NCBI GenBank assembly: GCA_963826115.1
Contig: CAWGVS010000006.1
Location: 384,001 to 448,000 of the forward strand
Length of the DNA stretch: 64,000 bases
Reading direction: 5' to 3'
Source of the DNA: an uncultured Candidatus Rokubacteria bacterium
GTDB lineage: Bacteria > Methylomirabilota > Methylomirabilia > Rokubacteriales > DASRDR01
Numbering within the stretch: the stretch's first letter is position 1; every line of letters starts with the position of its first letter. A model generated the notes under the pieces. That model worked only from the letters and a program-made list of their open reading frames with translations, did not search any database and was not told the DNA's origin. The position numbers and the translations under genes are program-made. Positions 2,685-35,161 of the stretch are shown here, piece after piece.

Positions 2685-4155
2685 GGGAGCGGTGGCGCGG
2701 CGCACCCTGTTCCTGCACCCGCCCTCGTTCGAGGGCTTCGACGGTGGCGCAGGGTCCCGCTACCAGGCGCGCCGCGAGATCCGCTCGTTCTGGTACCCCA
2801 CCTGGCTGGCCCAGCCTGCCGCGCTCGTCCCCGGAAGCCGCCTGGTCGACGCCCCACCCGACGGCCTGACTCTCGAGCAGGTGGCCCCGCTCGCCCGCGA
2901 GTACGACCACGTGGTGATGCACACGAGCACGCCCTCCTTCGGCAGCGACGCGCGCGTGGCCGAGCGCCTGAAGGAGGAGCATCCGGGTGTCCTGGTCGGG
3001 ATGGTCGGAGCCCACGTCGCCGTCCTTCCGGAGGCGTCGCTTCGCGTGGCGCGTGCGGTCGACTGGGTCGGCGTGGGCGAGTTTGACCATGCCTGCGCGG
3101 AGATCGCCGCCGGCCGGCCGCTCGGGGACGTGCGGGGCATCGCCTATCGCCACGGCGACCGGATCCGGTTCACGCCGCCTCGTCCGCCGATCGAAGACAT
3201 GGACGCGCTGCCGTCCGTGGTGGACGTGTACCGGCGCGACCTGACGATCGAGCACTACTTCATCGGTTACCTGCTCCACCCGTACGTGTCGCTCTACACG
3301 GGACGCGGGTGCCGCTCCAAGTGCACGTTCTGCCTGTGGCCGCAAACCGTGGGCGGTCACCGCTACCGCGTGCGGAGCCCGGAGAGCGTCGAGGCCGAGA
3401 TGGCGCTGGCCAAGCGCTATTTCCCCCAGGTGCGCGAGTTCTTCTTCGACGACGACACGTTCACGGACGACCTGCCGCGGGCCGAGGAGATCGCGCGCCG
3501 GCTGGGCCGCCTCGGGCTCACGTGGTCGTGCAACGCGAAGGCGAACGTCCCGCGCCGGACGCTGGAGGTCCTCCGTGACAACGGGCTCCGGCTCCTCCTG
3601 GTGGGCTACGAGTCGGGGGACCAGCGGATCCTGAACAACATCAAGAAGGGCGTGCGCCTCGACGTGGCGCGGGAGTTCACGCGGCACGCCCGGGACCTCG
3701 GCATCGCGATCCACGGGACCTTCGTCCTGGGGCTGCCGGGAGAGACGCCGGAGACGATCCGGGAGACGATCCGCTACGCGTGCCAGATCGAGCCCGACAC
3801 CATCCAGGTCTCGCTGGCGGCGCCGTACCCCGGGACCGCGCTCTACCGGCAGGCGCAGGAGCAGGGGTGGCTCTCGCCGACGGCGGGGGACCTCGTGAAC
3901 CCGGACGGCGTGCAGGTCGCCGCGCTCGCCTACCCGGGGCTTGCGCAGTCGGAGATCTTCGACTCGGTCGAGGCGTTTTATCGCCGCTTCTACTTCCGGC
4001 CGCGGAAGATCGTCGCGATGGCCGGCGGCATGCTGCGGGACCCGTCCCTCATGCGGCGACGGCTCCGCGAGGGCGTCGAGTTCTTCCGGTTCCTCCGTGA
4101 CCGCCGCGCGTCCCCGCCGAAGGTCCGGCCGGCGGCCGCGGGCCGGGCGGGTTGA
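2677..4155 (+). CDS. hpnJ: Hopanoid biosynthesis-associated radical SAM protein HpnJ
   Basis: N-terminus TLFLHPPSFEGFDGGAGSRYQARREIRSFWYPTWLAQPAALVPGSRLVDAP is characteristic of HpnJ. CxxxCxxC motif CRSKCTFC. Confidence 0.92.
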   Translation: MSEGAVARRTLFLHPPSFEGFDGGAGSRYQARREIRSFWYPTWLAQPAALVPGSRLVDAPPDGLTLEQVAPLAREYDHVVMHTSTPSFGSDARVAERLKEEHPGVLVGMVGAHVAVLPEASLRVARAVDWVGVGEFDHACAEIAAGRPLGDVRGIAYRHGDRIRFTPPRPPIEDMDALPSVVDVYRRDLTIEHYFIGYLLHPYVSLYTGRGCRSKCTFCLWPQTVGGHRYRVRSPESVEAEMALAKRYFPQVREFFFDDDTFTDDLPRAEEIARRLGRLGLTWSCNAKANVPRRTLEVLRDNGLRLLLVGYESGDQRILNNIKKGVRLDVAREFTRHARDLGIAIHGTFVLGLPGETPETIRETIRYACQIEPDTIQVSLAAPYPGTALYRQAQEQGWLSPTAGDLVNPDGVQVAALAYPGLAQSEIFDSVEAFYRRFYFRPRKIVAMAGGMLRDPSLMRRRLREGVEFFRFLRDRRASPPKVRPAAAGRAG

Positions 4156-4166
4156 TCGGCGTCCCG

Positions 4167-4553
4167 ATGCGCGCGCTCTTCGTGTGCCGCGGCAACGTCT
4201 GCCGGAGCCGGGTGGCCGAGCAGATCTTCCAGGTCCTGACCTGGAGTGTGGGAGACCGGGGCGATCACGAGGCGCGCTCGGCCGGCGTCGATCCGGACTC
4301 GGGCGGCCGCCTGATCACGAAGCGGGACGTGGCGTGGGCCGACGTGATCTGCGTCATGGAGCCGGAGCACGAGGCCTACATCCGGAAGCACTGGCCGGAG
4401 CACGCGCCGAAGGTCCGCGTGCTCGGGATCCCCGACGTCTACGAGCCGGACGACGCCGACCTCCGGGACCGCCTCACCGAGGTGGTGCGAGGCCTCCTGG
4501 CCGAAGCCCAGCGCGGCTCCACCGGCGAGCCGCGGACCTCGCGGGGGCGCTGA
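4167..4553 (+). CDS. Low-molecular-weight protein-tyrosine phosphatase family protein
   Basis: P-loop FVCRGNVCRS (C-X5-R), SAG, WADVICVME and IPDVY motifs. Start is ATG 4167 or TTG 4152. Confidence 0.85.
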   Translation: MRALFVCRGNVCRSRVAEQIFQVLTWSVGDRGDHEARSAGVDPDSGGRLITKRDVAWADVICVMEPEHEAYIRKHWPEHAPKVRVLGIPDVYEPDDADLRDRLTEVVRGLLAEAQRGSTGEPRTSRGR

Positions 4554-4574
4554 CCGGGCCGCGGGGGCCGGTCA
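4551..4574. terminator. Short hairpin between convergent genes
   Basis: TGACCGG...CCGGTCA inverted repeat overlapping both stop codons. No U-tract. Confidence 0.35.
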
Positions 4575-5003
4575 GACCCGCCGCCGGCCGCTGTCCCGGA
4601 AACGAACGGCGGCCCGCACCGCGGCGACCAGCTCGTCGAGGTTGAACGGCTTGACGAGGTAGTAGAAGATTCCGGCCGCGCGAGCGGCCTGCTCCACCTC
4701 GTAGGACGCGTGCCCCGTCATGACGATGATCGGGAGTGACTCGTCGAAGCGCTTCACCACGGCGATCGCGTCCAGGCCGCCGAGTCCCGGGAGCTTCAGG
4801 TCCAGGATCAGCGCCCGGTAGCTGATTTTCATGATGCGCTGGATGGCGTCCACCGCGCGATCGGCGGTGTCCACCTCGAACACCTCCTGGGACAGCACCT
4901 CGACGATCGTGTCGCGCATGCGCGGGTCGTCGTCGCAGACCAGGACCCGCTCGCGCTCCGCCGCCGCCGGCCCCTGGGCCGAGGTCGCGCTCTCGTGGCT
5001 CAC
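4572..5003 (-). CDS. Single-domain response regulator (REC)
   Basis: Canonical receiver residues: VLVCDDD, LILDLKLPG, MTGH, VKPF. Start placed at GTG 5003, which follows a GGAGG. Confidence 0.88.
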   Translation of the reverse strand: MSHESATSAQGPAAAERERVLVCDDDPRMRDTIVEVLSQEVFEVDTADRAVDAIQRIMKISYRALILDLKLPGLGGLDAIAVVKRFDESLPIIVMTGHASYEVEQAARAAGIFYYLVKPFNLDELVAAVRAAVRFRDSGRRRV

Positions 5004-5025
5004 TTTCGCCTCCGCGCGCTCGGGC

Positions 5026-6453
<1,428 letters not shown>

Positions 6454-6491
6454 GTTTGATGGAAAAAGGCTACGGAATTTCTCCCGGTTCC

Positions 6492-6520
6492 ACTATCCAG
6501 AGTGGAGGGGAGGCTGTCAA
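6492..6520 (-). promoter_or_regulatory. Putative sigma70 promoter of the activator gene
   Basis: Minus strand TTGACA-17 nt-GATAGT upstream of ATG 6453. Confidence 0.5.
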
Positions 6521-6659
6521 GGCATTTCCCGAATGGCTACGCGGACTGGGAGCACGAGACCTGCGGGACCGTGGAACTGGCGGGCCTTTTGGCTTGTTTC
6601 CACGGTGCGCGTCACGGTTGGTCGTGAAGGAACGTGCGCTCGCAAACTTGCTATTGCCC

Positions 6660-6675
6660 TGGCACCTGGATTGCT
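6660..6675 (+). promoter_or_regulatory. Sigma54 -24/-12 promoter of the EPS operon
   Basis: TGGCAC-CTGGA-TTGCT matches the TGGCAC-N5-TTGCW consensus exactly. It lies 75 bp upstream of ATG 6750 and is divergent from a GAFTGA activator. Confidence 0.85.
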
Positions 6676-6749
6676 GTATCGTGGCGGGACTTCAGGAATC
6701 ACCACTGTCGTTGGCGGGCCACAGGCCCGAGGATTGGGGGAAGCGGAAT

Positions 6750-7301
6750 ATGACGCGTAGGGTGCTCATCGCGTTGCTCGGCGCACTCATCGTGGCCGTC
6801 GGAACATCCACTTGGGCCGCAACCGAGGACGAGAAGCGGATCATCAACGGGCCGAGCAAGACCTCGTTCGGTGGCTTGGAGCTGGTGCTCGGGCAGGGCT
6901 CGTCGGCCGAGACGTCTTTCCAGCCCGACGCGAGCAAGCTGATGGTGAAGACCCTCGTCGGCGAGGCACGCATCGTCACGTCGGCCAAGAACCTGATCCT
7001 GGTGGAGAGCAGCGAGGGTCGCATCGAGATCCTCCTGCCCAACGGGCGGGTCATCGTCGTGGAGCCGGGCAAGGCGGAGATCGTCGGCCGGGCGCTCGTG
7101 GACGACCCAGGAAACATCACGATCCGGCTCTCCGGGACCGGTCCGGTCGCGCAGGGGCCGGGGGGCCTGCCACCGTCGATCACGACGACCATAGTCAGCG
7201 TGCAGGTGATCCTGTCCGTCCAGCCGTCGATCATCGACCCGCTGGAGCCGCTCCAGAACTCCGTTCGCGGGGCCACCACCTCGCCGACGACCAACCCCTA
7301 G
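6750..7301 (+). CDS. Secreted hypothetical protein (FecR-like beta-rich region, Ser/Thr/Pro tail)
   Basis: Signal peptide MTRRVLIALLGALIVAVGTSTWA after a purine-rich RBS. Beta-strand-like core. C-terminus GATTSPTTNP. Confidence 0.7.
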   Translation: MTRRVLIALLGALIVAVGTSTWAATEDEKRIINGPSKTSFGGLELVLGQGSSAETSFQPDASKLMVKTLVGEARIVTSAKNLILVESSEGRIEILLPNGRVIVVEPGKAEIVGRALVDDPGNITIRLSGTGPVAQGPGGLPPSITTTIVSVQVILSVQPSIIDPLEPLQNSVRGATTSPTTNP

Positions 7302-7412
7302 CAGTCTGACCTGAGGACCCTCACCGGGTCCCTCGTTACGAATACAACCCGCGTCGCCGCCGCTCGGAGAGTATCCGGGGGCGGCGACGCTTCGTCGCTC
7401 AAGGAGGGGCGC

Positions 7413-8603
7413 ATGCGCCACTTGCGTGCTCCGGCGATGTGGTCCGGGTTGGTCCTCCTCGCGGTGCTGGGATTCGTCGGATCGGCGTCGGCTCAAGGTC
7501 TCCAGCTCGGCCCCTTCCGTCTGCTGCCGTCGCTCGAGCTCTCCGTCGAGTACGACGACAACATCCTCTTGACCCGAGACGACAAGATCGACGACATCAT
7601 CTTCCACATCACCCCCGGCATCCTCCTCGAGCTACCGTCCCGGAAGTACGCGATCCGTCTCGGGTATCAGGCCGACGTCCTGCAGTACGTGGACAACACC
7701 GACCTCAATACCATCCATCACGCGATGCTGGCCGACGCCCGCGTGGGCTTCAACATGGGCCTGGGCCTCCGGCTGACGGACCGCTTCCTGATCACCGACG
7801 AGTTCTCCGGCTTCCCCGTCCCGGAGCTGACGCAGCGGGTGGATCGGTGGGAGAACACCCTCGACGTCGGGATGGACTACACGATCCGTGAGCGGTTTAC
7901 GCTGGACGTCGGCTATCGCTGGTTCATGGTCGACTACAGGGACGATCCCGAATTCGATCAGTTCGACCGGGACGACCACACGATTACCGGGACGCTCTTC
8001 TACCGGGTCCTTCCGAAGACGTCGGTCCTCGGCGAGGTCGAGTACAACATGGTCCGGTACGACATCCCGTCGGTCGCCGCCGACCGCGATTCGGACGCTT
8101 GGCGCTTCAAGGTCGGCCTGAAGGGTGACCTCACCGCCAAGACGACCATCCTGTTGAAGGTCGGCTGGGAATGGCGGGACTACGAGAATCGGCAGGATTG
8201 GGACGGGCTCATCGCCGAGCTCAATGTCGTCTGGAAGTACCGCGAGCCCTCCGAGGTGCGTCTGTTCGCCGGCCGGGCGAACGTCGAGTCGCTGTTCGAG
8301 GGCACGAACTACTACGTCAGCACGTACGGCGGCGCCGAGGTCCGGCACTTCCTGAGCGAGCGTCTGACGCTCCGGGTTCGGGGCCTGGGCGGCGTGAACG
8401 ATTATCCGGAGGACGCCGCGCTTGGTGCGGGGTCCGCGGATCGCAGTGACGTGTTCATCGAAGCCGGCGCGGCGCTCAAGTACCAGATGCGGCGCTGGCT
8501 CGCGTTCGAGCTCGCGTACAACTTCCTGAAGCTCGACTCGAACTTCAACGAGTTCGACTACACCGACAACCGCGTGAAGGCGAGCGTTATCTTCTCGTAC
8601 TGA
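7413..8603 (+). CDS. Outer-membrane beta-barrel protein associated with polysaccharide export (EpsX/Wzp-like)
   Basis: Strong RBS AAGGAGG, signal peptide, YDDNI motif, amphipathic beta-strands and aromatic C-terminus (YTDNRVKASVIFSY). Directly upstream of the OPX genes. Confidence 0.85.
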   Translation: MRHLRAPAMWSGLVLLAVLGFVGSASAQGLQLGPFRLLPSLELSVEYDDNILLTRDDKIDDIIFHITPGILLELPSRKYAIRLGYQADVLQYVDNTDLNTIHHAMLADARVGFNMGLGLRLTDRFLITDEFSGFPVPELTQRVDRWENTLDVGMDYTIRERFTLDVGYRWFMVDYRDDPEFDQFDRDDHTITGTLFYRVLPKTSVLGEVEYNMVRYDIPSVAADRDSDAWRFKVGLKGDLTAKTTILLKVGWEWRDYENRQDWDGLIAELNVVWKYREPSEVRLFAGRANVESLFEGTNYYVSTYGGAEVRHFLSERLTLRVRGLGGVNDYPEDAALGAGSADRSDVFIEAGAALKYQMRRWLAFELAYNFLKLDSNFNEFDYTDNRVKASVIFSY

Positions 8604-8644
8604 GCCGGGCAACACCCGACGCAACGCGCGGCAAGGGCTCGATC

Positions 8645-10276
8645 ATGCGTCGTCCTTCACGGCGGTATCACTGGGCGGTCCTGTCCCTCGCGCTTCTCGG
8701 CGCGCTTCTCACGGGGCTCATCCCGCCGGCCGCAGGCCAGCCTGCGCGGGCGCCTAGTCAGGACTACCGGGTCGGCCCCAAGGACGTCCTGAAGGTCACC
8801 ATCTGGGGGCACGACGACCTGTCGCGCCTCGTCGTGGTGTCCGCGGACGGGACCTTCCAGTTCCCCCTGATCGGCGACGTCCGCGTGTCCGGTCTGACGC
8901 CGGGCGCCATCGAGACCCTCCTGCGAGAGCAGCTCGAGAAGGACTACCTCGTCAACCCGCAGGTCTCGGTCAGCGTCCAGGAGTTCCGCTCCCAGCGGGT
9001 GTTCGTGCTCGGCGAGGTCGAGAAGCCCGGGACCTACGCCATGACGGGCCAGACCACGCTCCTCGACGTCCTCTCCCAGGCGGGCGGACCCGGGAAGACC
9101 GCCGGGCGGCAGGTCCTCGTGGTCCGGTTCCCGACGTCCGAGGGACCGGTGACGCCGGGGGCCGCCGGCAGCGTCGCGCTGCGCGCCAATCTCAAGCGCC
9201 TGCTGGACGGCGAGGGCAAGGAGAACATCGTCCTGCAGAACGGGGACACGGTCTTCGTCCCCAAGCTGACGTCGTTCTTCGTCCTAGGGGAGGTCCTGCG
9301 CCAGGGGGCCTACGCGATGGAGAAGGACACGTCGGCACTCGAGGCGGTGACGCTCGCTGGTGGGTTCACGGACCGGGCTGCGCCCAGCGGCGCGAGGATC
9401 CTGCGCAAGGGACCGGACGGCGCCCAGGAGACGATCGAGATCGACCTCTCCGATCCGAAGGCGCGCGAGGTGCACCTGGCGGAGGGGGACACCCTGCTCG
9501 TGCCCCGCGGCAACACCTTCTTCGTGTCGGGGGAGGTGCGGAAGCCGGGCGCCTACCAGCTCGAGAAGTCGACCACGGCGTTCGGGGCGGTGACCGTGGC
9601 CGGTGGCTTCACCGAGAAGGCGGGGCAGAGCCAGGCGAAGCTCATCCGGCGTTCGCCCACGGGCCAGGAGCAGACGGTGGTACTGGATCTGTCCGGTGCG
9701 GACCCCGCCGCGCGGGACTTCCCGCTGCGCGACGGCGACACGCTCCTCGTGCCCTCGGGGAACACTTTCTACGTGCTGGGCGAGGTGCGGAAGCCTGGCG
9801 CCTATCAGCTGGACCCGGCGACGACCGCGGTCAGCGCGATGACGCTTGCCGGCGGCTTCACCGAGAAGGCGCTGCAGTCCCAGGTCAAGCTCACCCGGCG
9901 GCTCCCGTCGGGGGTCGAGCAGACCACGTTACTCGACCTCTCGGGCGCAGACCCCAAGGCGAGGGAATTTTTCCTCAAGGATGGAGACATTCTACTCGTC
10001 CCGGTTGGGAACACCTTCTACGTGCTGGGGGAGGTGAAGAAGCCCGGGGCCTACCAGCTGGACCAGACGACCACGGCCATCCAGGGGGTCGCCATGGCGG
10101 GTGGGTTCACCGACCGGGCGGCGCCAAATCGCACGAAGATCATAAGAACTCACATAGATGGCCGTCAGGAAACGATCGTGATTGACCTCAACGAGGTGGT
10201 GAAACGAGGCCGAAAGGAGAAGGACCTCCCCCTGCTGGCCAACGACGTCCTCGTCGTACCGGAGAGTTTTTTCTAG
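8645..10276 (+). CDS. wza: Polysaccharide export OPX/Wza-family protein, Poly_export + 5 SLBB repeats
   Basis: YRVGPKDVLKVTIW...DGTFQFPLIG Poly_export motif. Five (V/F)xVxGEV...G(A/T)Y repeats. Ends VPESFF. Confidence 0.9.
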   Translation: MRRPSRRYHWAVLSLALLGALLTGLIPPAAGQPARAPSQDYRVGPKDVLKVTIWGHDDLSRLVVVSADGTFQFPLIGDVRVSGLTPGAIETLLREQLEKDYLVNPQVSVSVQEFRSQRVFVLGEVEKPGTYAMTGQTTLLDVLSQAGGPGKTAGRQVLVVRFPTSEGPVTPGAAGSVALRANLKRLLDGEGKENIVLQNGDTVFVPKLTSFFVLGEVLRQGAYAMEKDTSALEAVTLAGGFTDRAAPSGARILRKGPDGAQETIEIDLSDPKAREVHLAEGDTLLVPRGNTFFVSGEVRKPGAYQLEKSTTAFGAVTVAGGFTEKAGQSQAKLIRRSPTGQEQTVVLDLSGADPAARDFPLRDGDTLLVPSGNTFYVLGEVRKPGAYQLDPATTAVSAMTLAGGFTEKALQSQVKLTRRLPSGVEQTTLLDLSGADPKAREFFLKDGDILLVPVGNTFYVLGEVKKPGAYQLDQTTTAIQGVAMAGGFTDRAAPNRTKIIRTHIDGRQETIVIDLNEVVKRGRKEKDLPLLANDVLVVPESFF

Positions 10277-10308
10277 GAAACTTCTCCACGCAGGCCGCCT
10301 CCCATGGC

Positions 10309-10324
10309 GGGCACGGTAATTGCT
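10309..10324 (+). promoter_or_regulatory. Internal sigma54 -24/-12 promoter upstream of the second OPX gene
   Basis: GGGCAC-GGTAA-TTGCT (GG-N10-GC) in the AT-richer gap after the first wza. Confidence 0.7.
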
Positions 10325-10357
10325 CTCTACACCACCGGATTCATGAGGGAGGGTGGT

Positions 10358-11503
10358 GTGCAGATCAACAGAAACGGCAACTTCGAGCGGGTCCCGGGGC
10401 GTGTCTGGGACCTCCTCATCCTGGTAGGTGTGGTCGCCCTGATCCTTTTTGCCCGGGCTGGCTTCAGTGCGACCGGGGAGGGCTATCGGATCGGCCCGGG
10501 CGACGTCCTGAAGGTCACGGTCTGGGGTCACGACGACCTGAGCCGGCCCGTGGTGGTCCCGGCCGACGGCCGCGTGCCCTTTCCGCTGATCGGGGACGTC
10601 CAGGTTAACGGGCTCACCCCGACCGAGCTCGAGGGACGGCTCCGCGATCTCCTCGGCAAGGACTACCTCGTGGACCCGCAGGTCACGGTGTCCGTCCAGG
10701 AATACCGCTCACAGCGCGTGTTCGTCTTGGGCGAGGCCGAGAAACCCGGTACCTATCCCCTCACGGGGCGGATCACCCTGCTCGATGTCCTGTCACAGGC
10801 GGGCGGGCCGGCCAAGACCGCGAGCCGCCAGGTCGTGGTCGTGCGGGCGCCGAAGGCCGAGGCGCCCGTGACTCCCGGGACGGCGGGCACCACGACCTTC
10901 CGGGTGAACCTGACGAAGCTCCTCGACGGCATCTCCACGGAGAACCTGGTCCTGGAGAACGGCGACACGGTCTACCTGCCCAGGCAGACGAGCTTCTTCG
11001 TGCTGGGCGAGGTGAAGAAGCCGGGCGCCTACGTGCTCGACAAGGACACCTCGGCGCTCGAGGCGGTCACGCTGGCGGGCGGGTTCACCGAGCGCGCCGC
11101 CTCGACGGTGGCCAAGGTGCTCCGCCGGAAGGCGGACGGCTCCCAGGAGACGATCGCGCTCGATCTCGGCGGCAGCGACACGCGCGCCCGCGACTTCCTC
11201 CTCACCGACAATGACACGATCCTCGTGCCGACCGGCAACAGCTTCTACGTCCTGGGTGAGGTCAAGAAGCCGGGCGCCTACCAGTTGGAGCACGCGGGGA
11301 CGGCTATTGAAGGCGTGGCCCTGGCGGGCGGGTTCACGGAGCGGGCGGCGCCCAACCGCACCAAGATCATTCGGACGCACCGCGACGGCCGCCAAGAGAC
11401 AATCATGATCGACCTGAACGACATCATCAAGCGGGGCCGGAAGGAAAAGGACATCCCGCTGCTCGCGAACGATGTCGTCGTCGTGCCCGAGAGCTTCTTT
11501 TGA
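10358..11503 (+). CDS. wza: Second OPX/Wza-family protein, Poly_export + 3 SLBB repeats
   Basis: Paralogue of 8645..10276 (YRIGPGDVLKVTVW, three GE(A/V)xKPG repeats, VPESFF end). The track's ATG 10304 overlaps the sigma54 promoter, so GTG 10358 (after GAGGGAGG) or ATG 10343 is more plausible. Confidence 0.88.
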   Translation: MQINRNGNFERVPGRVWDLLILVGVVALILFARAGFSATGEGYRIGPGDVLKVTVWGHDDLSRPVVVPADGRVPFPLIGDVQVNGLTPTELEGRLRDLLGKDYLVDPQVTVSVQEYRSQRVFVLGEAEKPGTYPLTGRITLLDVLSQAGGPAKTASRQVVVVRAPKAEAPVTPGTAGTTTFRVNLTKLLDGISTENLVLENGDTVYLPRQTSFFVLGEVKKPGAYVLDKDTSALEAVTLAGGFTERAASTVAKVLRRKADGSQETIALDLGGSDTRARDFLLTDNDTILVPTGNSFYVLGEVKKPGAYQLEHAGTAIEGVALAGGFTERAAPNRTKIIRTHRDGRQETIMIDLNDIIKRGRKEKDIPLLANDVVVVPESFF

Positions 11504-11515
11504 TCGGAGGACTGG

Positions 11516-12895
11516 ATGGATCGTTCTGAGGTCTTCGAGGGTGTCCACCTGCGCGAATACATCCGGGTCATCCGGAAGCACGTCTGGCTGATCCTGGCGT
11601 GCTTCCTGGTCGTCGTGGGTGCGGTCGCGGTGGGGACCTACATGCAGCAGCCCGTGTACCGCGCCGGCGCGGTCGCGCTGATCGCGCCCGAGGCGAACCG
11701 GGTCGTCAACATCCAGGAGGTCACCCCGACCGGCGGTGACTCCCTCGAGAACTTCCAGACCCAGGTCCAGATCATTCGAAGCCGGCCGGTCATCCAGCGG
11801 GTGATCGACACCACGGACCTCCTGAATCGCAAGCCGGAGCTGGCCCGTTCGGCCGAGCCGACCGAGGCCTTCCTCCGCCGCCTGTTCGTGGATCCGGTGC
11901 GCAACACCCGGCTGGTGGAGATCCAGGTGGAGGACCCGGACCCGAAGCTCGCGGCCGAGCTGGCGAACGCCGTCGCCAGCGCGTACGTGCACCAGAACCT
12001 CGAGCTCAAGTTCAGCGCCGCGCGCGACGCGTTGACGTGGCTGACGGCCCAGGTCGGGGACCTCAAGAGCAAGGTGAACGAGTCGGAGCTCAACCTCCAG
12101 CGCTACCGCGAGCAGGCGGGCCTCATCTCCGCCGAGGAGAAGCAGAGCCTCACGACCAAGAAGCTCGGGGAGTTCAACAGCAACTACATCGAGGCCAAGG
12201 CGAAGCGTCTGGAGATGGAGTCTCGCCTGAACGAGATCCGGCGCGCGGCGCAGCAGCCCGAGATGCTCGAGTCGTCCCCGATGGTCATCAACAACCCGCT
12301 GATCCAGCGGCTGAAGGGCCAGCTCGTCGAGCTCGAGGTCCAGCGCTCGAAGCTCCTCAAGACCTTCCGGGAGAAGCACCCGGAGGTCGTCAAGGTGCAG
12401 TCGCAGATCGACGAGATCTCGCAGAAGATCCGTGAAGAAGTGAGCCGCCTCGCGATGAGCATGGAGAGCGAGTACAACTCGCTCAAGGCGCGCGAGAACG
12501 CGATGCTCCAGGCGACCAACCAGTACCGGGACGAGGCGCAGAGCCTGGCCAAGAAGGAGATCCAGTTCGGCATCCTGAAGCGGGAAGCCGACTCGAACCA
12601 GCAGCTCTACGACGTCCTGCTGAAGCGACTGAAGGAGACCGGTTTGAGCCAGGGACTCGATTCCAGCAACGTCCGAATCGTGGAGCCGGCCGTGGCCCCG
12701 ATCCGGCCCATCAAGCCGCGCAAGGCCTTGAATCTGGCGGTCGGCATCGTGCTGGGGCTCGGGACCGGCCTGGCGCTGGCGTTCTTCGTGGAGTACATGG
12801 ACGACTCGATCCGCGCGCCCGAGCACATCGAACAGACCATCGGCGTCCCGGTGTTCGCGCTGATCCCGGTGATCCCGGGCCGAGGTCGGTCATGA
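11516..12895 (+). CDS. wzc: Polysaccharide co-polymerase (GumC/Wzc periplasmic-membrane part)
   Basis: HLREYIRVIRKH N-terminus, two TMs flanking a long coiled coil, EKHPEV, and PIKPRKALNL. Confidence 0.9.
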   Translation: MDRSEVFEGVHLREYIRVIRKHVWLILACFLVVVGAVAVGTYMQQPVYRAGAVALIAPEANRVVNIQEVTPTGGDSLENFQTQVQIIRSRPVIQRVIDTTDLLNRKPELARSAEPTEAFLRRLFVDPVRNTRLVEIQVEDPDPKLAAELANAVASAYVHQNLELKFSAARDALTWLTAQVGDLKSKVNESELNLQRYREQAGLISAEEKQSLTTKKLGEFNSNYIEAKAKRLEMESRLNEIRRAAQQPEMLESSPMVINNPLIQRLKGQLVELEVQRSKLLKTFREKHPEVVKVQSQIDEISQKIREEVSRLAMSMESEYNSLKARENAMLQATNQYRDEAQSLAKKEIQFGILKREADSNQQLYDVLLKRLKETGLSQGLDSSNVRIVEPAVAPIRPIKPRKALNLAVGIVLGLGTGLALAFFVEYMDDSIRAPEHIEQTIGVPVFALIPVIPGRGRS

Positions 12896-13617
12896 GCCGG
12901 CCCGTGGCCGGAAAGCGCGCCGAGCAGTCGCGCCTGGTCGTCCTGGACGACCCGCGCTCGTTCGTGGCCGAAGCGTACCGGGTTCTCCGGACGAACCTGC
13001 ACTACGCGAATCCTGACGCTCCCATCCGGCGCCTGCTCGTGACGAGCGCCGGTGAGGGCGAGGGCAAGTCGACGACCATCGCGAACCTGGCCGTCTGCTT
13101 CGCGCAGGCGGATCGGGCGGTCCTGCTGATCGACGCCGACCTGCGTCGGCCGGTCGTCAACACCCTGTTCCGACAGCCGGCGACGCCGGGCCTGTCCTCG
13201 TACCTGGCGGGCGACGCGTTGTTCGACGCCGTCATCCAGAAGACCGCCGTGCCGAACCTCTCCATCATCGCCAGCGGGCCCACGCCGCCGAATCCGGCGG
13301 AGCTGGTGGGCTCCCGGCGAATGCGCGAGTTGCTGGACGCGGCGGGCGAGCGCTTCGACATGGTCCTCCTCGATTCACCGCCGGTGCTCGCGGTGAGCGA
13401 CGCGGGGGCCCTCGTGCCGATGGTCGACGGGGTGCTCTTGGTCGTCGGGAGCGGCCTGGCCGCTCGCCTGGCCTTGCGGCGGGCGAAGGAGGCGATCCAG
13501 GCCGTCCAGGGGCGCATCGTGGGCGCCGTTCTCAACCGCTTCGACGCGAGCGCGCAAGGGTATCCCAAGCGCTACTACGACCGGTACGAGAACTACTACA
13601 CCAAGCGTAGTTCCTGA
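12892..13617 (+). CDS. CpsD/CapB-family BY tyrosine kinase (stand-alone Wzc kinase domain)
   Basis: AEAYRVLRTNL, Walker A GEGKST, IDADLRRP, LLDSPP and C-terminal tyrosine cluster YPKRYYDRYENYY. Confidence 0.93.
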   Translation: MSRPVAGKRAEQSRLVVLDDPRSFVAEAYRVLRTNLHYANPDAPIRRLLVTSAGEGEGKSTTIANLAVCFAQADRAVLLIDADLRRPVVNTLFRQPATPGLSSYLAGDALFDAVIQKTAVPNLSIIASGPTPPNPAELVGSRRMRELLDAAGERFDMVLLDSPPVLAVSDAGALVPMVDGVLLVVGSGLAARLALRRAKEAIQAVQGRIVGAVLNRFDASAQGYPKRYYDRYENYYTKRSS

Positions 13618-13625
13618 GCGGCCAT

Positions 13626-16553
13626 ATGGCGTCACGCCTCCTCGAGGTCGGGGTCGAGGCGGGGATTCTCGCGGTCGTGCTGTTCGCGCCGATCCCGCTC
13701 GGGTCCGTCCTTCCGTGGGCGCAGGCGGGGCTGCAGATCCTCGTCACGCTCACCGTGGGCCTGTGGATCATCCGCATGATGGTCGACGGCCAGGCCGCGG
13801 TGCGGGTGACGCCGCTCCTGTGGCCGGGCGCGGCGATGCTCGCGCTGGTCGGTGCCCAGCTCCTGATCCCGGGCGGTAGCGTCAGCCCGTACTTCACCTG
13901 GGAGAGCTTCCGGCTGCTGGCCGCCTACCTGGCGTTCCTGATGGTCCTGGGCGCGTACCTCGTCACGCCGGGCCGGATCGTCCGCCTGATCTCGATTCTC
14001 GTTGCCTGGGGGGTCCTGTGGGCGGCCTGCGGTCTGGTCAATCGCGCGGCCGGCCACGAGACGGTGCTCTGGCTCGAGAAGACGGCCTATCAGGGTCGCC
14101 TGGTGAGCACCTTCGTGAACGCGAACAACCAGGCGCTCTACTTCGCGGTCCTGCTGTTCCTCGCCCTGGGCATGGTGTTGCGTCCTTCGCGACGCTCGGG
14201 TAATCCCGGCCCCGCCCGGCCGGCGACCGCGGCGACGTCGCTGCGCGGGACGGGGATCGTCGCCCGCATCCTCTTTGGAGGCGCGGCGGTCGTGCTCGCG
14301 GTTGCGCTGGTGCTGACGGCGTCGCGGGGCGGCGTGGCGGCTGCCGCGGCGGGCTTGCTCGTCATGGGCGTGATGGCGCTGGCGGGGCGAGTTCGCAGCC
14401 GCGTGGTGGTGGGGCTCGCCGCGGGTCTCGGCGCCTTTGTCGGGTACATGGCGTGGCTCGGCGCCGACGGCCTGCTAGATCGCCTGGCCATTCTCGCGCG
14501 CGAGCCGTTCGGGGACCTCCGGTGGGAGATCTGGCGGTCGACGCTCCGCATCGCGGCCGAGGCGCCGGTGCTGGGTACCGGGCTCGGTACCTTCGCGGAC
14601 GCGATCATCGCCCACCGGCCGGCCGGGCTGACCGACGCCTTCTACGTCGACTTCGCGCACAACGACTACCTGCAGCTGCTCGCCGAGGGCGGGGTGCTGG
14701 CCCTGCTCATCCTGGGCTGGGCGGCCGTCGGGTGGCTCGTGTTCGTCGTCGGCCGGTGGCGCGATCGTCAGGACGTGTTCGTGCGCGGGCTCGTGATGGG
14801 CGGCGTGGGGGCCGTGGCCACCGTCGCGTTCCACAGCGCCGTGGATTTCGGGCTCCACATGCCGGGCAACGCGCTCCTGGTCGTTGCTGTCCTGGCGCTG
14901 CTGCCTGCGGTGGTGACCCTCCGCGCACATCGCACGGGTCTGCAGGTCGACCTGCGGGAGTGGCGCGGGAAGGTCGCGCCGCGCGGGCGCGTCATCGTCG
15001 CGGTCGTGACCGCCTTGATCGTCGTGACCTTCGGCCTGGGCCTCACGTCGCTCGCGATCGCCGACTGGAAATACCAGCGCGCCAGCCACCTGATCGGCGA
15101 GAAGCGGCGGATCCAGGGGGCGCTCACCATGGCGGATCTCGCCACGGCCGAGCGTGACCTCCGCGGGGCCGCGGGCTTCGACCGCTGGAACCCGCGCATC
15201 CAGACAGAGTGGGCGATTGCCGCCGGGGAGCTTGGCCACCGCGTATGGACCTACGGTCTGGCCCCGGACGGGACTCGCCTGCGGCCTGGTACCGCGCGCG
15301 AACGTCTCGTGGCCAGTCAGGGATTCCTGGGAGCTGCCGACGGGGCCTACGGACGGAGCCTGCGCTCGCAGCCACTGTTTGCGCTCAACCACGAGCGGTT
15401 CGGCTGGTTCCTCGTTCGCCTCGACGGCGTGCGGCGCACCGTGGTCGCCGAGCGGCTCGAGGATGTCCTAGTTCCGGAGATGGTCGCGACGCTCGGGGTG
15501 CCCGAGAGCCTGTTGCCCCGCGCCCTCGAGCACGTGCAGGAGGCGGTTCACCTCGATCCGGCGAGTCCGGCTCGACGGATGAGCCTCGTGTCGCTCGCGC
15601 TGGCGCGAAGCGCCGAGATCCCGGGCGCGCGCGCGATGGTCATCCGGGAGTCGCGCGAGGCAATCCACCTGGATCGCCGGAAGGTGCTGCCGGAGATCGT
15701 CCGCAAGCTGACCGCGCCGGGCGTCGAGCCCGACCTGCTCTGGCACGCCGTCCCGCGGGAGACGGGCACGCTCGTGGAGCTGGCCGGGATCCTCGAGGCC
15801 GAGGGCAAGGTCTCGGCGGCCGGCGTCGCGCTGGAGGACGCGGTGGCGATGGCGACCGAGCCCTCCGAGCAGGTTACGGTGCTGCTGGCGCGATCCCGCT
15901 TCCTGCTGCGCCATGACGGCAAGGCGCTCGCGCTGGCCCAAGCGCGGCAGGCGCTCGCGCTCAAGCCACCGGACGTCGAGGTCTTCGCAGTGCTGGCCGA
16001 GGCCTACGAGGCGAACGGGCGTCTCGACGAGGCCGCCGCCGCGTACAGCTCGGCGCTGGCGGGCACCGGGGACACGGATGTCCGACGGGCCAACCGGTAC
16101 CGGGCGGGGCTCGCGTCGATCCAGGCGCGACGCGGGGACCAGGCCGGCGCGCTGGCCTTGCGGCGCCAGGCGGTCGACGCCATGCCGAACGACCCCTGGG
16201 CGCGCCTCGAGCTGGCGCGGCTACTCGAGGCCAGGCAGGACCTGGCGGAGAGCCTCCGGGAGTACGAGTCTGCCCGCGTGCTCGGACAGGGAGAGTGGAT
16301 CGTCCAGATCAGCGCTGCCGAGGCCTTCATCCGCAACGGGATGCTGCGGGAAGCCACCGCGCCCACGTTGCGGGCGGTCCAGCTGAATCCGGGCGCGGAC
16401 GACCTGCGCGTCCGACTCGGGGACCTCTACGCCCGGATCGGCATGCCGGACGAGGCCAAGGAGCAGTACCGCCAGGTCCTGGCCCGGCAGCCCGCGCATC
16501 AGGCGGCCAGCCGCGGGCTGCGATCCGTCATGGGCCTCTCGGACCCCGGCTAG
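13626..16553 (+). CDS. O-antigen ligase (Wzy_C) family membrane protein with C-terminal TPR repeats
   Basis: STFVNAN, LTASRGG, RWEIWR...PVLGTGLGTF, FAHNDYLQLLAEGG and FHSAVDFGLH motifs, followed by an Ala/Leu-rich TPR region. Confidence 0.85.
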   Translation: MASRLLEVGVEAGILAVVLFAPIPLGSVLPWAQAGLQILVTLTVGLWIIRMMVDGQAAVRVTPLLWPGAAMLALVGAQLLIPGGSVSPYFTWESFRLLAAYLAFLMVLGAYLVTPGRIVRLISILVAWGVLWAACGLVNRAAGHETVLWLEKTAYQGRLVSTFVNANNQALYFAVLLFLALGMVLRPSRRSGNPGPARPATAATSLRGTGIVARILFGGAAVVLAVALVLTASRGGVAAAAAGLLVMGVMALAGRVRSRVVVGLAAGLGAFVGYMAWLGADGLLDRLAILAREPFGDLRWEIWRSTLRIAAEAPVLGTGLGTFADAIIAHRPAGLTDAFYVDFAHNDYLQLLAEGGVLALLILGWAAVGWLVFVVGRWRDRQDVFVRGLVMGGVGAVATVAFHSAVDFGLHMPGNALLVVAVLALLPAVVTLRAHRTGLQVDLREWRGKVAPRGRVIVAVVTALIVVTFGLGLTSLAIADWKYQRASHLIGEKRRIQGALTMADLATAERDLRGAAGFDRWNPRIQTEWAIAAGELGHRVWTYGLAPDGTRLRPGTARERLVASQGFLGAADGAYGRSLRSQPLFALNHERFGWFLVRLDGVRRTVVAERLEDVLVPEMVATLGVPESLLPRALEHVQEAVHLDPASPARRMSLVSLALARSAEIPGARAMVIRESREAIHLDRRKVLPEIVRKLTAPGVEPDLLWHAVPRETGTLVELAGILEAEGKVSAAGVALEDAVAMATEPSEQVTVLLARSRFLLRHDGKALALAQARQALALKPPDVEVFAVLAEAYEANGRLDEAAAAYSSALAGTGDTDVRRANRYRAGLASIQARRGDQAGALALRRQAVDAMPNDPWARLELARLLEARQDLAESLREYESARVLGQGEWIVQISAAEAFIRNGMLREATAPTLRAVQLNPGADDLRVRLGDLYARIGMPDEAKEQYRQVLARQPAHQAASRGLRSVMGLSDPG

Positions 16554-16564
16554 CACAGGTGTCG

Positions 16565-18301
16565 ATGATGGCAACCAGACCCGGGTTGTGGGGCATCGAG
16601 ACGGAGGCGCAGCAGCTTGCGTCGCTGATCGCTCGCACGCTGCCCGTGACCGTGGCGAGCGTGGCCCTGTGGGACGAACCGAGCCTGAGCCTGACGGTGA
16701 AGGCGATGGAGACGGTGCGACCGGTCGGCGGATCGCTGCCGGTCGGGGCCCGCGTGCAGCTTGCGGACGCTGCGTGGCACCGCCACGCCTTCGAGCACAA
16801 CGAGCCCGTCCTGCTGGAGGGGACAGGTGCCTCCGGACTCGCGGTCGAGCGCGAGTCGGAGCTCGCGCTCATCCCCCACGTCCAGTCGATGTACCTGGTG
16901 CCGATCCGGTTCGCAGACGAGACCGTAGGGGTGCTGGTGCTGGGGGAGGCCCGGGGGACGGATCGCGAGCGCTTCTCCAGCGAGAAGCAGCGGCAGTGCC
17001 AGACGATCCTCGACGAGTTCGTGGTGCAGACCGCGCACGCCTGGGAGGCCCGGCGGCTCCGTCGGCAGGTGCGGGCGATGTCCTCCCTGATGCAGCTCGT
17101 CCGCGGGGTCTCGACTGCGACCTCCTATGATGACCTGCTCGGCAGCTTGGCCGCCGAGGTGGCCGACTGGCTGGGCATCCCGGTCCGCGGTGCGCTGCTT
17201 GGCGTGATGGGCAAGGAGATCCATCTTCTGGCGGGCTGGCAGCTGCCCGATGAGATCCTGAGCGACGGCGGCCGGCAGATGTTCCTGGCGATGACGCGGA
17301 GTGGTGCACGGGGCTCGGGTCCCGTTACCCTGGCGATCGCCGGTGACGACCCCCTGGATCCGATCGCGTCGTGCGAGCCTGCGGCCAAGCGCTGGACGCG
17401 AGTCGGCGTTCCGCTCATGCGAGACGATGAGTTGGTCGGTGTGGTCTGTCTCTACCTGGAGGACGAGATCCGCCTCGCGGACTGGGAGCTCGAGGCGCTG
17501 CGACGACGGGGCGAGATCCTGGCGCTCGGCCTGGAGTCGATCGCGGCGGCGCACAGCCGGCAGGCCGAGCAGGAGCAGCTTCACCGCGTCGCCTTCGATC
17601 TGCTCACCGGTTATCGCTGCGCCCTCCTTCGGGAGGTGTTCGGCAGCATGACCCGCACGCTTGCGGGCTCGCTCGAGCGGCGGCTTCGCGAAGCGCTTCC
17701 CGGGCTCGTCGAGCAGGGCCAGGGGGCGGCGACTGGCCAGGCCGACCATGGCGACCTCGTCACGACGATCGTAGCCGACATGTCGGCAGCGGTGTCCGAG
17801 CTGTGGGAGCTGGAAGACACCGCCCAGTCGGTGACCATGTCGCTCGACGTGAACGACATCGTGGACCGGGCGCTGCGCATCGTGAAGACCAGTCTCGAGG
17901 ACCTGTCGCGACGTCGCGGCGTGACGGTCGTCGTTCGCCGTGATCCGGCCGGGCAGCCGGTCGTGGTGCGGGGGTCCTTGGTCCTGGTCGGCGCCCTCGT
18001 CCACGCGATCGAGAGCGCGGTAGAGGCGATGTCCGACGGGGGCGAGGTGCAGATCCGCACGGGCCGGGAGAACGGCCATGCGGTCATCTCCGTAGAGGAC
18101 ACGGGCGGCCAGACCCTCCGGGAACCCGACTCCGCGCCCCTCGCGCGCCTCTCCGTCAGGCACCCGAGCGTCGTCCTGTCCCTGGTGCGGTCGATCGTGC
18201 ACCCCTTCGGGGGTCGGGTGGCGCTGCAGCCGCTCGAGGCCTCCGGCAGCGCGCTGGTGCTCCACCTGCCGATCCTGTCTTCCGGCGGGACCAAGGACTG
18301 A
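16565..18301 (+). CDS. GAF-GAF-HATPase-like protein (degenerate histidine kinase)
   Basis: Two GAF-like segments (SMYLVPIRFADETVGVLVLG and VGVPLMRDDELVGVVCL). The C-terminal HATPase-like region (LDVNDIV...GGEVQIRT...ISVEDTG) lacks canonical H, N and G2 boxes. Confidence 0.75.
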   Translation: MMATRPGLWGIETEAQQLASLIARTLPVTVASVALWDEPSLSLTVKAMETVRPVGGSLPVGARVQLADAAWHRHAFEHNEPVLLEGTGASGLAVERESELALIPHVQSMYLVPIRFADETVGVLVLGEARGTDRERFSSEKQRQCQTILDEFVVQTAHAWEARRLRRQVRAMSSLMQLVRGVSTATSYDDLLGSLAAEVADWLGIPVRGALLGVMGKEIHLLAGWQLPDEILSDGGRQMFLAMTRSGARGSGPVTLAIAGDDPLDPIASCEPAAKRWTRVGVPLMRDDELVGVVCLYLEDEIRLADWELEALRRRGEILALGLESIAAAHSRQAEQEQLHRVAFDLLTGYRCALLREVFGSMTRTLAGSLERRLREALPGLVEQGQGAATGQADHGDLVTTIVADMSAAVSELWELEDTAQSVTMSLDVNDIVDRALRIVKTSLEDLSRRRGVTVVVRRDPAGQPVVVRGSLVLVGALVHAIESAVEAMSDGGEVQIRTGRENGHAVISVEDTGGQTLREPDSAPLARLSVRHPSVVLSLVRSIVHPFGGRVALQPLEASGSALVLHLPILSSGGTKD

Positions 18302-18303
18302 CG

Positions 18304-19713
18304 ATGTACGGCTTTCAGAGCCAGCACCGGCGCCGGATCGAGATGCTGATCGACGCGTGTCTCACGATCCTGGCGTTCGTCTCGGCGTACGGCCTGCGGG
18401 GCATGTTCGGGACCTTGCCGCCGGCTCCTCTGGCCCACCTGGCGCTCCTGCCCGTCATCGTCCCGATATGGGGATTCCTCCTGATCTTTTTCCGCGCCTA
18501 CCGGAGCCCGGGTGAGGCGTCGATCGTCGATCTGTTCCTCGCCACCGTCCGGGCCGTCGCCGCGGGACTGGTGCTGTTGCTGGCCCTGGTCTTCCTACTG
18601 CGGGCCCACGAGGTCAGCCGGTCTATCGTAGTCACGTTCGGCATTCTCGACTGTCTCGCGCTCTTGGTCGTGCGCCTGGCCCGCGTCTGGAGATTCCGGT
18701 GGGCTCTCGAGCGCGGTGAGAAGCATCGTCGGGTCCTCATCGTGGGGACGGGGAATCGCGCGGAGCGGCTGGCCGGCAAGCTCGTGCAGACCTCGAACTG
18801 GGGCATCGACATCGTGGGGTTCCTCGACACGGACCCCTCGGTCGTCGGGAAGATGATCCGCGGCGCCCCGGTGCTCGGGACCCTCGACGACGTCACCGCC
18901 GTCCTGCGAGACCAGGTGGTCGACGAGGTCGTCCTGGCGATCCCGCGCGGCATGATCGGCGTCGCGGAGAAGGTCGTGCTGGCCTGCGAGGAAGAGGGCG
19001 TCCGGGTCCGGCTCATGGCCGATCTGTTCGAGATCAACGTCGCCCGGATGGTGCTGGACGAGTTCGACGACCTGCCGCTGCTGACCTTCGAGCCCGTCGC
19101 CCAGGAGGAGTGGAAGCTCCTGCTGAAGCGGGTGACCGACCTGGGGCTGACGCTGCTGTCGATGCCCGTCGTCCTCCCGATCGTCGCGGCCGTCGCCGTC
19201 GCGATCAAGTGGGACTCGCCGGGCCCGGTCTTCTTCAAGCAGCTGCGGGTGGGCCAGAACAAGCGCCGGTTCACCCTGTACAAGTTCCGCACGATGGCCG
19301 AGGGCAGTGAGCAGCGGCAGGGCGAATTCGAGCACCTCAACGAGGCCCAGGGGCCGATCTTCAAGATCACCAACGACCCCCGGGTCACGCGGGTGGGCCG
19401 CTTCCTGCGGCGGACGAGCCTAGACGAGGTGCCGCAGCTCTTCAACGTCATCTACGGCGAGATGAGCTTGGTGGGGCCACGTCCGATGTCGGTGCGCGAC
19501 GTGAACCTCTTCGATCGCGGCATCCAGCGGAAGCGCTTTAGCGTGAAGCCCGGCCTGACCTGCCTCTGGCAGGTGTCAGGGCGCAGCAACCTGCCCTTCG
19601 AGAAGTGGCTGGAGCTGGATCTCTGGTACATCGAGCACTGGTCCATGCTCCTGGATCTGAAGATCCTGCTCCGGACGATCCCCGCCGTTTTCCGCGGCAC
19701 CGGGGCGATGTAG
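18304..19713 (+). CDS. Undecaprenyl-phosphate sugar-1-phosphate (priming) transferase, WcaJ/CpsE family
   Basis: N-terminal TMs, VLIVGTG domain, and KFRTM, DPRVTRVGRFLRRTSLDEVPQ, GEMSLVGPRP, KPGLTCLWQVSGR. Confidence 0.95.
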   Translation: MYGFQSQHRRRIEMLIDACLTILAFVSAYGLRGMFGTLPPAPLAHLALLPVIVPIWGFLLIFFRAYRSPGEASIVDLFLATVRAVAAGLVLLLALVFLLRAHEVSRSIVVTFGILDCLALLVVRLARVWRFRWALERGEKHRRVLIVGTGNRAERLAGKLVQTSNWGIDIVGFLDTDPSVVGKMIRGAPVLGTLDDVTAVLRDQVVDEVVLAIPRGMIGVAEKVVLACEEEGVRVRLMADLFEINVARMVLDEFDDLPLLTFEPVAQEEWKLLLKRVTDLGLTLLSMPVVLPIVAAVAVAIKWDSPGPVFFKQLRVGQNKRRFTLYKFRTMAEGSEQRQGEFEHLNEAQGPIFKITNDPRVTRVGRFLRRTSLDEVPQLFNVIYGEMSLVGPRPMSVRDVNLFDRGIQRKRFSVKPGLTCLWQVSGRSNLPFEKWLELDLWYIEHWSMLLDLKILLRTIPAVFRGTGAM

Positions 19714-34964: not shown

Positions 34965-34970
34965 AGTCCC

Positions 34971-35000
34971 GCTCCTTCCGGAGGCCCCCTCCGGAGGAGC
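34971..35000 (-). promoter_or_regulatory. SD-sequestering hairpin (riboswitch expression platform candidate)
   Basis: Minus strand GCTCCTCCGGAGG-GGG-CCTCCGGAAGGAGC. The 3' arm holds the AAGGAG located 7 nt before ATG 34964. Confidence 0.65.
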
Positions 35001-35016
35001 ATCTGCTCCCCATCCT

Positions 35017-35112
35017 TCTTCGGTAACCCGGCTATCAGGTGAGCGAGGTGCACTCGCGCCTGACCCGTGGCTTTGCGTCCCCGCCTCACGACGGGTTTGC
35101 CCTTTTCGGAAG
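35017..35112 (-). ncRNA. c-di-GMP-I (GEMM-I) riboswitch
   Basis: Minus strand AAGGGCAAACCCGTC-GTGA-GGCGGGGACGCAAAGCCACGGGTC...GATAGCCGGGTTACCGAA. Shows GGCAAAC, a GNRA-capped P2, GACGCAAAGCC and GGTTACC, all hallmarks of the class. Lies in the 5' UTR of the CARDB gene. Confidence 0.9.
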
Positions 35113-35161
35113 GAGGCCGTCCTGTTCAGTTGTCGGACCTGTAACTGGACGCGACTCGTGG

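Follow-up and report, generated by a model that had tools for sequence, protein, structure and literature searches.

We analyzed a 64,000-nt stretch of DNA from an uncultured Candidatus Rokubacteria bacterium (contig CAWGVS010000006.1, positions 384,001 to 448,000; hereafter the window, numbered from its first letter), which holds the regulatory module of a Wzx/Wzy-type exopolysaccharide (EPS) cluster. The module consists of a sigma54 activator of the NtrC family, a single-domain receiver and a kinase-like protein with two GAF domains, which we call the pseudokinase. The activator and the pseudokinase lack their phospho-sites, are kept by selection and probably signal by binding instead. Our favored reading, to which we give a probability of about 0.5, is that they are a former two-component pair that would have lost phosphotransfer and may now act, by analogy, as a contact-based switch closest to NifL-NifA. 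Genes were called from third-codon-position G+C (GC3) and domain scans, the G+C of the window being about 70%, and all three were found where a sequence-only reading of this DNA had placed them:

4572-5003, minus strand: single-domain receiver (Response_reg, 87.8 bits)
5026-6453, minus strand: NtrC-family sigma54 activator, 475 aa (Pfam domains and motifs)
6094-6453, minus strand: receiver domain of the activator
5521-6024, minus strand: AAA+ domain of the activator
5080-5205, minus strand: HTH_8 domain of the activator
6424-6426, 6292-6294 and 6142-6144, minus strand: activator codons H10, D54 and Q104
16565-18301, plus strand: GAF-GAF pseudokinase, 578 aa (Pfam, alignments and AlphaFold2 (AF2) model)
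16565-17029 and 17117-17479, plus strand: GAF1 and GAF2 of the pseudokinase
17480-17809, plus strand: helices resembling a dimerization and histidine phosphotransfer (DHp) domain
17837-18274, plus strand: degenerate GHKL domain
17654-17656 and 18014-18016, plus strand: pseudokinase codons R364 and S484

The activator scores 226.9 bits with Sigma54_activat, 71.5 with Response_reg and 51.9 with HTH_8. Its translation shows GESGTGKE, GAFTGA and DEIGE, all invariant in the alignment, and Walker A, Walker B, GAFTGA and the C-terminal HTH_8 place it among the NtrC-family sigma54 enhancer-binding proteins; the sequence-only reading had correctly credited it with GAFTGA and the Walker motifs. A gapless phmmer alignment with the NtrC receiver (1dc7) pairs H10/E11/D12 with D10/D11/D12, D54 with D54, S82 with T82 and Q104 with K104. 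At H10-E11 and Q104 the domain therefore departs from the residue set of a phosphorylatable receiver (acidic pair, Asp54, Thr/Ser82, Lys104). VPQPF does stand in place of KPF, exactly as had been claimed. The claim that IIHED replaces the acidic pocket holds in part: the first acidic residue is His, and E11 and D12 are kept, leaving the pocket half lost.

A search of 5.8 billion proteins delivered a sharply bounded set of activator orthologs (62-91% identity, with the next drop to 48%). We aligned 92 of these with the 15 next-nearest homologs (45-49% identity); substitution counts here and below rest on cluster representatives (92 for the activator, 57 for the pseudokinase). Position 104 is Gln in 77 orthologs and Glu in 11 (88/92 together), with His, Arg, Lys and Thr once each, and the single ortholog with Lys104 carries Asn at 54. 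At position 54 we counted Asp 73, Asn 8, Gly 3, Ser 3, Ala 2, Glu 2 and one gap; the 18 proteins with Asp54 replaced are all full length, with Walker A and GAFTGA/GSFTGA intact. Position 82 is Ser in 50, Thr in 28 and another residue in 14. Among the 75 rows that include the N-terminus, none has two acidic residues at positions 10-11 (HP 17, HE 13, HA 12, HQ 7, others), and the second acidic residue, position 11, is kept in 14. The 15 next-nearest homologs are all canonical (D/E-D, D, T, K), as are all 14 other receiver-bearing sigma54 activators of the same genome.

Pairwise ratios of nonsynonymous to synonymous substitution (dN/dS; Nei-Gojobori, approximate at dS of 0.5-1.8) are 0.06-0.33 in the activator's receiver. 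The AAA+ domain has values of 0.06-0.25. On these sequence comparisons the receiver domain is a conserved pseudo-receiver and not in decay. Family-wide, it lacks the Lys and the acidic pair required for phosphorylation-driven switching. The sequence-only reading had proposed asking whether orthologs keep the Lys and the acidic pair, as lineage-specific decay would have it; every ortholog examined has a noncanonical receiver under purifying selection, which is not that pattern. In the linker that follows the receiver, position 124 is Arg in 97% of orthologs and Leu in 15/15 canonical relatives.

The pseudokinase reaches 22.2-22.6 bits with HATPase_c, below the cutoff of 26.4; Pfam detects its GAF domains. 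Compared with DivL, ZraS and KinB, it has Ser484 at the N-box Asn, DTGGQ at G1 and HPSVVL at G2 (GxGLGL). A six-frame search of the genome yielded 53 HATPase_c matches; this gene's is the sole one within the window and takes 50th place by score. No kinase domain turned up in the 33 other open reading frames (ORFs) of the window that were scanned. Both earlier statements about this gene, that it is degenerate and that it is the only kinase-like gene in the window, thus stand. The AF2 model, built on a 57-row alignment (predicted local distance difference test score, 82.6), consists of GAF domains at residues 1-155 and 185-305, a long helix plus hairpin at 306-415 and GHKL at 425-570, and a membrane region is absent from it. 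Foldseek matches of the model include bacteriophytochrome kinases, tandem GAFs, ZraS and KinB, with NifL from the NifL-NifA complex at rank 49.

The pseudokinase family is small and discrete, with 71 proteins at E <= 1e-10. An exhaustive profile search returned about 14 full-length representatives of 50%-identity clusters before the E-value dropped from ~1e-150 to ~1e-50. We aligned 57 full-length members, which form two subclades: the window's (n=27, at least 53% identity) and a sister subclade (n=30, 35-44% identity). The H-box position was set by aligning 12 canonical outgroup kinases drawn from that profile search (His of AHDFNN), whose phospho-acceptor His aligns to Arg364. This column reads Arg 37, Asp 9, Gly 6, Glu 2, Lys 1, Gln 1 and His 1, such that 56/57 members are without His at the canonical phospho-acceptor position. 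A HisKA-type Pfam model matched none of the 57. The N-box Asn is kept in 1/27 members of the window's subclade (Ser in 24) versus 23/30 of the sister subclade, the G1 motif in 3/27 versus 21/30 and the G2 motif in 1/27 versus 27/30; all three are intact in 1/27 versus 19/30. The kinase-like family as a whole is therefore without the canonical phospho-acceptor, and the window's lineage has lost the nucleotide-binding motifs as well. The substitutions in activator and pseudokinase are not chance events, since they recur across the 92 and 57 cluster representatives.

What the window's protein lacks of a sensor histidine kinase is the phospho-His in a HisKA-type DHp domain and the N, G1 and G2 boxes. 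Its sequence and model suggest a protein of the NifL type, with kinase-like dimerization helix (DH) and GHKL domains that would be without kinase function. Selection on it was estimated against genome G008 (our handle), the only other genome of the window's subclade with a full-length copy beside the activator, giving dN/dS of 0.27 for GAF1, 0.19 for GAF2, 0.38 for the hairpin and 0.32 for GHKL; values between the two subclades were saturated (dN 0.4-1.1) and were not used. The best sequence match of the pseudokinase among solved structures is DivL of Caulobacter (4q20, E 8.9e-7). DivL is a kinase homolog that signals without phosphotransfer, and its hallmark is a Tyr at the H-box His. A DivL-like reading of the pseudokinase, with Tyr350 as the H-box site (His in the sister subclade, 'TTHQR'), was rejected: the true site lies 14 residues downstream of Tyr350, and unlike in DivL it is an Arg, Arg364.

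The single-domain receiver has 143 aa from a GTG at 5003, which is its real start in place of one farther upstream, and the 143-aa form is on record. Its gene lies 22 nt downstream of the activator gene in the same orientation. The protein carries DDD, D, T and K and conforms to CheY-like single-domain receivers, bearing out the earlier view of it as fully canonical. It has 216 relatives at E <= 1e-25. An alignment of 58 sequences shows no variation at DDD, T96 and K118 and hardly any on the alpha4-beta5-alpha5 face, with D68 conserved in at least 90%; dN/dS is 0.09-0.26. Judged by these residues and those of the pseudokinase, the lone receiver must be phosphorylated by something other than the local kinase-like gene; elsewhere in the genome there are about 49 further kinase-type ATPase domains.

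The activator-receiver operon and the EPS operon diverge from a common spacer with the following elements:

6660-6675, plus strand: predicted sigma54 promoter, TGGCACctggaTTGCT, the only match in the window with 0 mismatches
6492-6520, minus strand: sigma70-type promoter of the activator-receiver operon, TTGACA-17-GATAGT (sequence match)
6568-6606, no strand assigned: candidate upstream activator site, a perfect 9-nt inverted repeat, ACCGTGGAA / TTCCACGGT, 21 nt apart

An exact sigma54 match was expected 0.03 times in the window, and 3/100 shuffles had one. TGGCA[CT]-N5-TTGCT occurs at the equivalent place in 8/8 orthologous loci. The consensus, the presence of rpoN in the genome and the nearby activator together predict a sigma54-dependent promoter. 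When up to 2 mismatches are allowed, the pattern gives 8 matches versus 14.3 expected, with no enrichment, and weight is therefore given to the exact match and its conservation only. The sequence-only reading's proposal of local sigma54 promoters is supported by this conserved promoter, which adjoins the activator gene and stands at the head of the EPS operon. The sigma70-type site is unique in 4400-7450 (10/12 matches, 0.1 expected), and both of its hexamers sit in blocks conserved among orthologous loci. The sigma54 promoter lies 140 bp from it and points in the opposite direction, into the EPS operon. The inverted repeat falls between the two promoters, about 60-100 bp upstream of the sigma54 promoter, and a GGAAC...GTT(T)CC dyad is recognizable in several orthologous spacers.

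The genes flanking the regulators and those downstream of the sigma54 promoter are:

2677-4155, plus strand: hpnJ
4152-4553, plus strand: low-molecular-weight phosphotyrosine phosphatase, Wzb-like (Pfam LMWPc, 43.6 bits)
6750-7301, plus strand: small ORF of 183 aa with no family, first gene 3′ of the sigma54 promoter
7413-8603, plus strand: beta-barrel porin (export block)
8645-10276 and 10304-11503, plus strand: two Wza-type exporters (export block)
11516-12895, plus strand: Wzz/GNVR co-polymerase (export block)
12892-13617, plus strand: bacterial tyrosine kinase, or BY-kinase (export block)
13626-16553, plus strand: Wzy_C polymerase/ligase domain fused to TPR repeats (Pfam)
18304-19713, plus strand: initiating polyprenyl glycosylphosphotransferase (TIGR03025, 427.6 bits), 3 nt past the pseudokinase gene

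Intergenic gaps across 7413-19713 are -4 to 42 nt, and the kinase-like gene, between the polymerase and initiating transferase genes, is therefore embedded in the EPS operon. As the activator's target operon encodes the pseudokinase, the arrangement would form a feedback loop. Orthologous loci share the gene order, and identity divides them into two blocks, with 54-89% from the activator to the BY-kinase but 32-42% for the polymerase, pseudokinase and transferase. The variable part starts at the Wzy_C-TPR gene (13626), which is only 40-42% identical in five orthologous loci where the export block is 54-86% identical.

Full-length pseudokinase relatives are present in 8/14 genomes of the same genus and 0/46 others of the order, and orthologs of the activator's receiver region in 10/14 and 0/46; G038 and G055, two unpublished genomes without a strong match, are counted in both. 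All 8 genus genomes with the pseudokinase also hold the activator. The contigs of G012 and G005 stop short of the pseudokinase position, so its absence there is uninformative. G014 and G008 have lost the export genes; there the pseudokinase gene comes directly after the sigma54 promoter, ahead of genes for sugar-nucleotide enzymes, and the activator is still adjacent. In five genomes (G001, G002, G003, G007, G014) a pseudokinase with intact N, G1 and G2 motifs accompanies the same Q104 activator. Pseudokinases that look ATP-competent thus coexist with the same Q104 protein, which uncouples ATP-site loss from the activator. This qualifies the earlier proposal that the two proteins co-degenerated: it holds for the phospho-sites (Lys and acidic pocket in the activator, H-box His in the pseudokinase), which are absent family-wide, and not for the ATP motifs, whose loss is confined to the window's subclade, with no accompanying change in the activator. 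With the activator as query, a search for related loci was dominated by generic AAA+ patterns: its 80 loci, from many phyla, were 37-44% identical, and none was used.

The comparison with NifL-NifA of Azotobacter vinelandii draws on portions of PMC12998190. NifL is described there as a kinase homolog without phosphorylation that binds the AAA+ domain of NifA through its DH and GHKL domains. Alike in both systems are a sensor, dimerization helices and a GHKL homolog in a non-kinase, encoded next to the activator (PMC12998190). NifL-NifA controls a sigma54 activator by stoichiometric binding (PMC12998190), a step assigned here by analogy. The sensors of NifL are PAS/FAD domains and its GHKL domain needs ADP, whereas the pseudokinase has two GAFs and no longer has the nucleotide motifs. 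In place of a receiver NifA carries a GAF domain; the activator here carries a pseudo-receiver. Also unlike NifL-NifA, the operon under control is an EPS operon and itself contains the kinase-like gene. Control by a bound protein in place of phosphorylation is also known for other sigma54 activators, FleQ with FleN (PMC12998190) and dephospho-DctD with IIAGlc (PMC11077940); their partners are a MinD-type ATPase and a phosphotransferase system (PTS) protein and not a kinase homolog.

PrsK/PrsR, from PEP-CTERM/exosortase EPS loci (TIGR02916/TIGR02915), likewise join a GAF kinase and a sigma54 regulator in an EPS locus with a similar export set, represented here by TIGR03016, EpsE-type and EpsF-like genes. 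Membership in these families was rejected: the activator scores 316.1 bits with TIGR02915 against a cutoff of 502.6, and the pseudokinase 22 bits with TIGR02916 against a cutoff of 300. In addition, the kinase-like protein here differs from PrsK in having no membrane region in its model, and no exosortase was seen among the scanned window ORFs.

We hypothesize that a two-component system of kinase and sigma54 regulator would have lost phosphotransfer and given rise to the present pair, which would act by stoichiometric contact as NifL-NifA does. The GAF domains may sense a small molecule, perhaps tied to polysaccharide type, given that divergence of the pseudokinase gene parallels that of the variable biosynthetic block. 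Retaining the activator or setting it free would then fall to the helical/GHKL part. A second input to the activator or the pseudokinase may come from the canonical receiver, once a small phosphodonor or the product of one of the ~49 other kinase-type genes has phosphorylated it. A more specific version, which we consider doubtful, is a three-protein partner switch in which the pseudokinase senses a polysaccharide-type metabolite and sequesters or releases the activator, and the lone receiver, once phosphorylated, contends with it for one docking surface. Product feedback and a phospho-signal from outside would in that case tune EPS synthesis, and the activator itself would never be phosphorylated.

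Several points weigh against a contact-based switch. Contact between any two of the three proteins is assigned by analogy. The window's activator keeps E11, D12, D54 and S82, so that residual phosphorylation is possible. NifL requires ADP in its GHKL domain, and the window's protein is without nucleotide motifs. Across the same genomes the pseudokinase is 36-41% identical versus 75-89% for the activator, and between subclades the identity of its helical hairpin falls to 24%; such fast divergence is a poor fit to a fixed interface on a conserved activator. The co-occurrence evidence comes entirely from one genus and is not independent. In genome G004 the activator-receiver pair, there without EPS genes, and truncated pseudokinase copies are ~98 kb apart or on another contig. 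Complex prediction of two copies of pseudokinase residues 306-578 with activator receiver residues 1-125 gave a score of 0.00 in both runs, below the mark, and counts neither way.

One alternative is that a small ligand rules the activator, for example cyclic di-GMP (c-di-GMP) at the AAA+ or receiver domain, with the pseudokinase and the lone receiver not direct partners. A non-phosphorylatable receiver does require some other input. FleQ and VpsR, whose AAA+ domains are among the solved relatives of the activator, and EpsI/Nla24 of Myxococcus xanthus are NtrC-like EPS activators with c-di-GMP and not their own phosphorylation as input (PMC4877007, in part). EpsI/Nla24, from the Myxococcus eps locus, is needed for EPS and binds c-di-GMP with a dissociation constant of 0.53 uM, and it differs from the present case in that those portions of PMC4877007 describe no kinase-like partner for it. 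We regard ligand control by itself as unlikely: it does not account for the persistence of a kinase-like gene under constraint next to the activator and promoter where loci are rearranged, and no GGDEF, EAL or PilZ domain is found among the scanned window ORFs. The activator could also be an ordinary two-component regulator, phosphorylated at D54 by a kinase encoded elsewhere, with Gln104 tolerated and the local kinase-like gene unrelated. Such a scheme would draw on the retention of D54 in the window and 73/92 orthologs, on Ser/Thr at position 82 in 78/92, on E11 and D12 of the window's protein and on the 53 HATPase_c matches of the genome. It seems quite improbable given that Lys104 occurs in 1/92 only, and there with Asn54, that both acidic residues are kept in 0/75, that N/G/S/A/E replaces Asp54 in 18/92 proteins otherwise intact, and that every other receiver-bearing activator of the genome has the full residue set.

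We likewise see little chance that the activator is constitutively active, with EPS set by its amount only and the pseudokinase a relic without regulatory function. This scheme would fit the activator operon having its own conserved sigma70-type promoter. The Arg that replaces the invariant Leu at linker position 124, which we infer could weaken an NtrC1-type inhibitory coiled-coil dimer, would suit it too. A relic is difficult to reconcile with purifying selection on both the receiver domain and the pseudokinase, with a pseudokinase subclade that by itself counts 27 cluster representatives from many contigs, or with the near invariance of the canonical receiver that is transcribed together with the activator.

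Atypical receivers are already known, and so are pseudokinases. A conserved locus in which the kinase and the regulator of a former pair have each been stripped of phospho-sites and each remain under selection would exemplify the conversion of a two-component system to a binding switch, of which NifL-NifA has so far been the main worked case. Judging by titles and abstracts, we found no description of such a module in the literature on Rokubacteria EPS/sigma-54 or on enhancer-binding proteins with pseudo-receivers. The module would offer a first handle on EPS regulation in an uncultured lineage abundant in soil, and with three proteins and one promoter it is small enough for tests in a heterologous host.

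As to the remainder of the locus, the export block (7413-13617) is identified by TIGR03016 (94.5 bits), EpsE (281.7) and eps_fam (186.7), each above cutoff, and glycosyltransferase genes continue on the plus strand up to about 43400. The LMWPc gene adjoins the regulator pair in all orthologous loci, and its product is likely the partner of the BY-kinase of the EPS locus. The 183-aa ORF has a hydrophobic N-terminal stretch resembling a signal peptide and no match in a Pfam scan, and is 48-88% identical across seven orthologous loci. Compared with our loci L025-L029, 13626-19713 together with the export block resembles serotype-type polysaccharide cassettes, with a conserved export block (54-86%) and a variable block (32-42%).

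The rearranged loci differ in detail. Porin/Wza fragments lie between activator and pseudokinase in G008 (locus L021, 13371-14734) and none do in G014 (L024). G004 (L022, L023) has two near-identical truncated pseudokinase copies with 443-491 aa matched and no GHKL, one with an in-frame TGA, and they adjoin a different, inverted EPS gene set. In G013 (L028), hpnJ, Wzz, BY-kinase and the 3′ end of the pseudokinase gene are split across frames, which looks like assembly indel errors and not biology.

None of the sequencing runs searched contains half of the stretch. Contigs of RNA library X20 and of X19 (labeled metatranscriptomic, probably DNA) cover the small ORF and the porin from 6731/6771 on at ~93-95% likeness, with no coverage over 6003-6670. 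They reveal neither transcript starts nor strand and are at most a weak hint that relatives transcribe the EPS operon.

Three further sites were noticed. A hairpin, CGGGAGAAATTCCG, followed by a T-run (6473-6486, minus strand) lies in the leader between the sigma70-type promoter and the activator start codon, in a sequence block conserved in 7/8 orthologous loci, and could be a leader structure or attenuator. A one-mismatch sigma54-like site, GGGCACggtaaTTGCT (10309-10324, plus strand), lies a few nucleotides into the second Wza gene as annotated and could be an internal promoter or chance. A near-consensus sigma54 site, also with 1 mismatch, GGGCACctaacTTGCA (35162-35177, minus strand), occupies a spacer within the EPS cluster, ~200 nt upstream of the likely start of a gene of ~1700 aa with CARDB repeats (30135-35234, minus strand).

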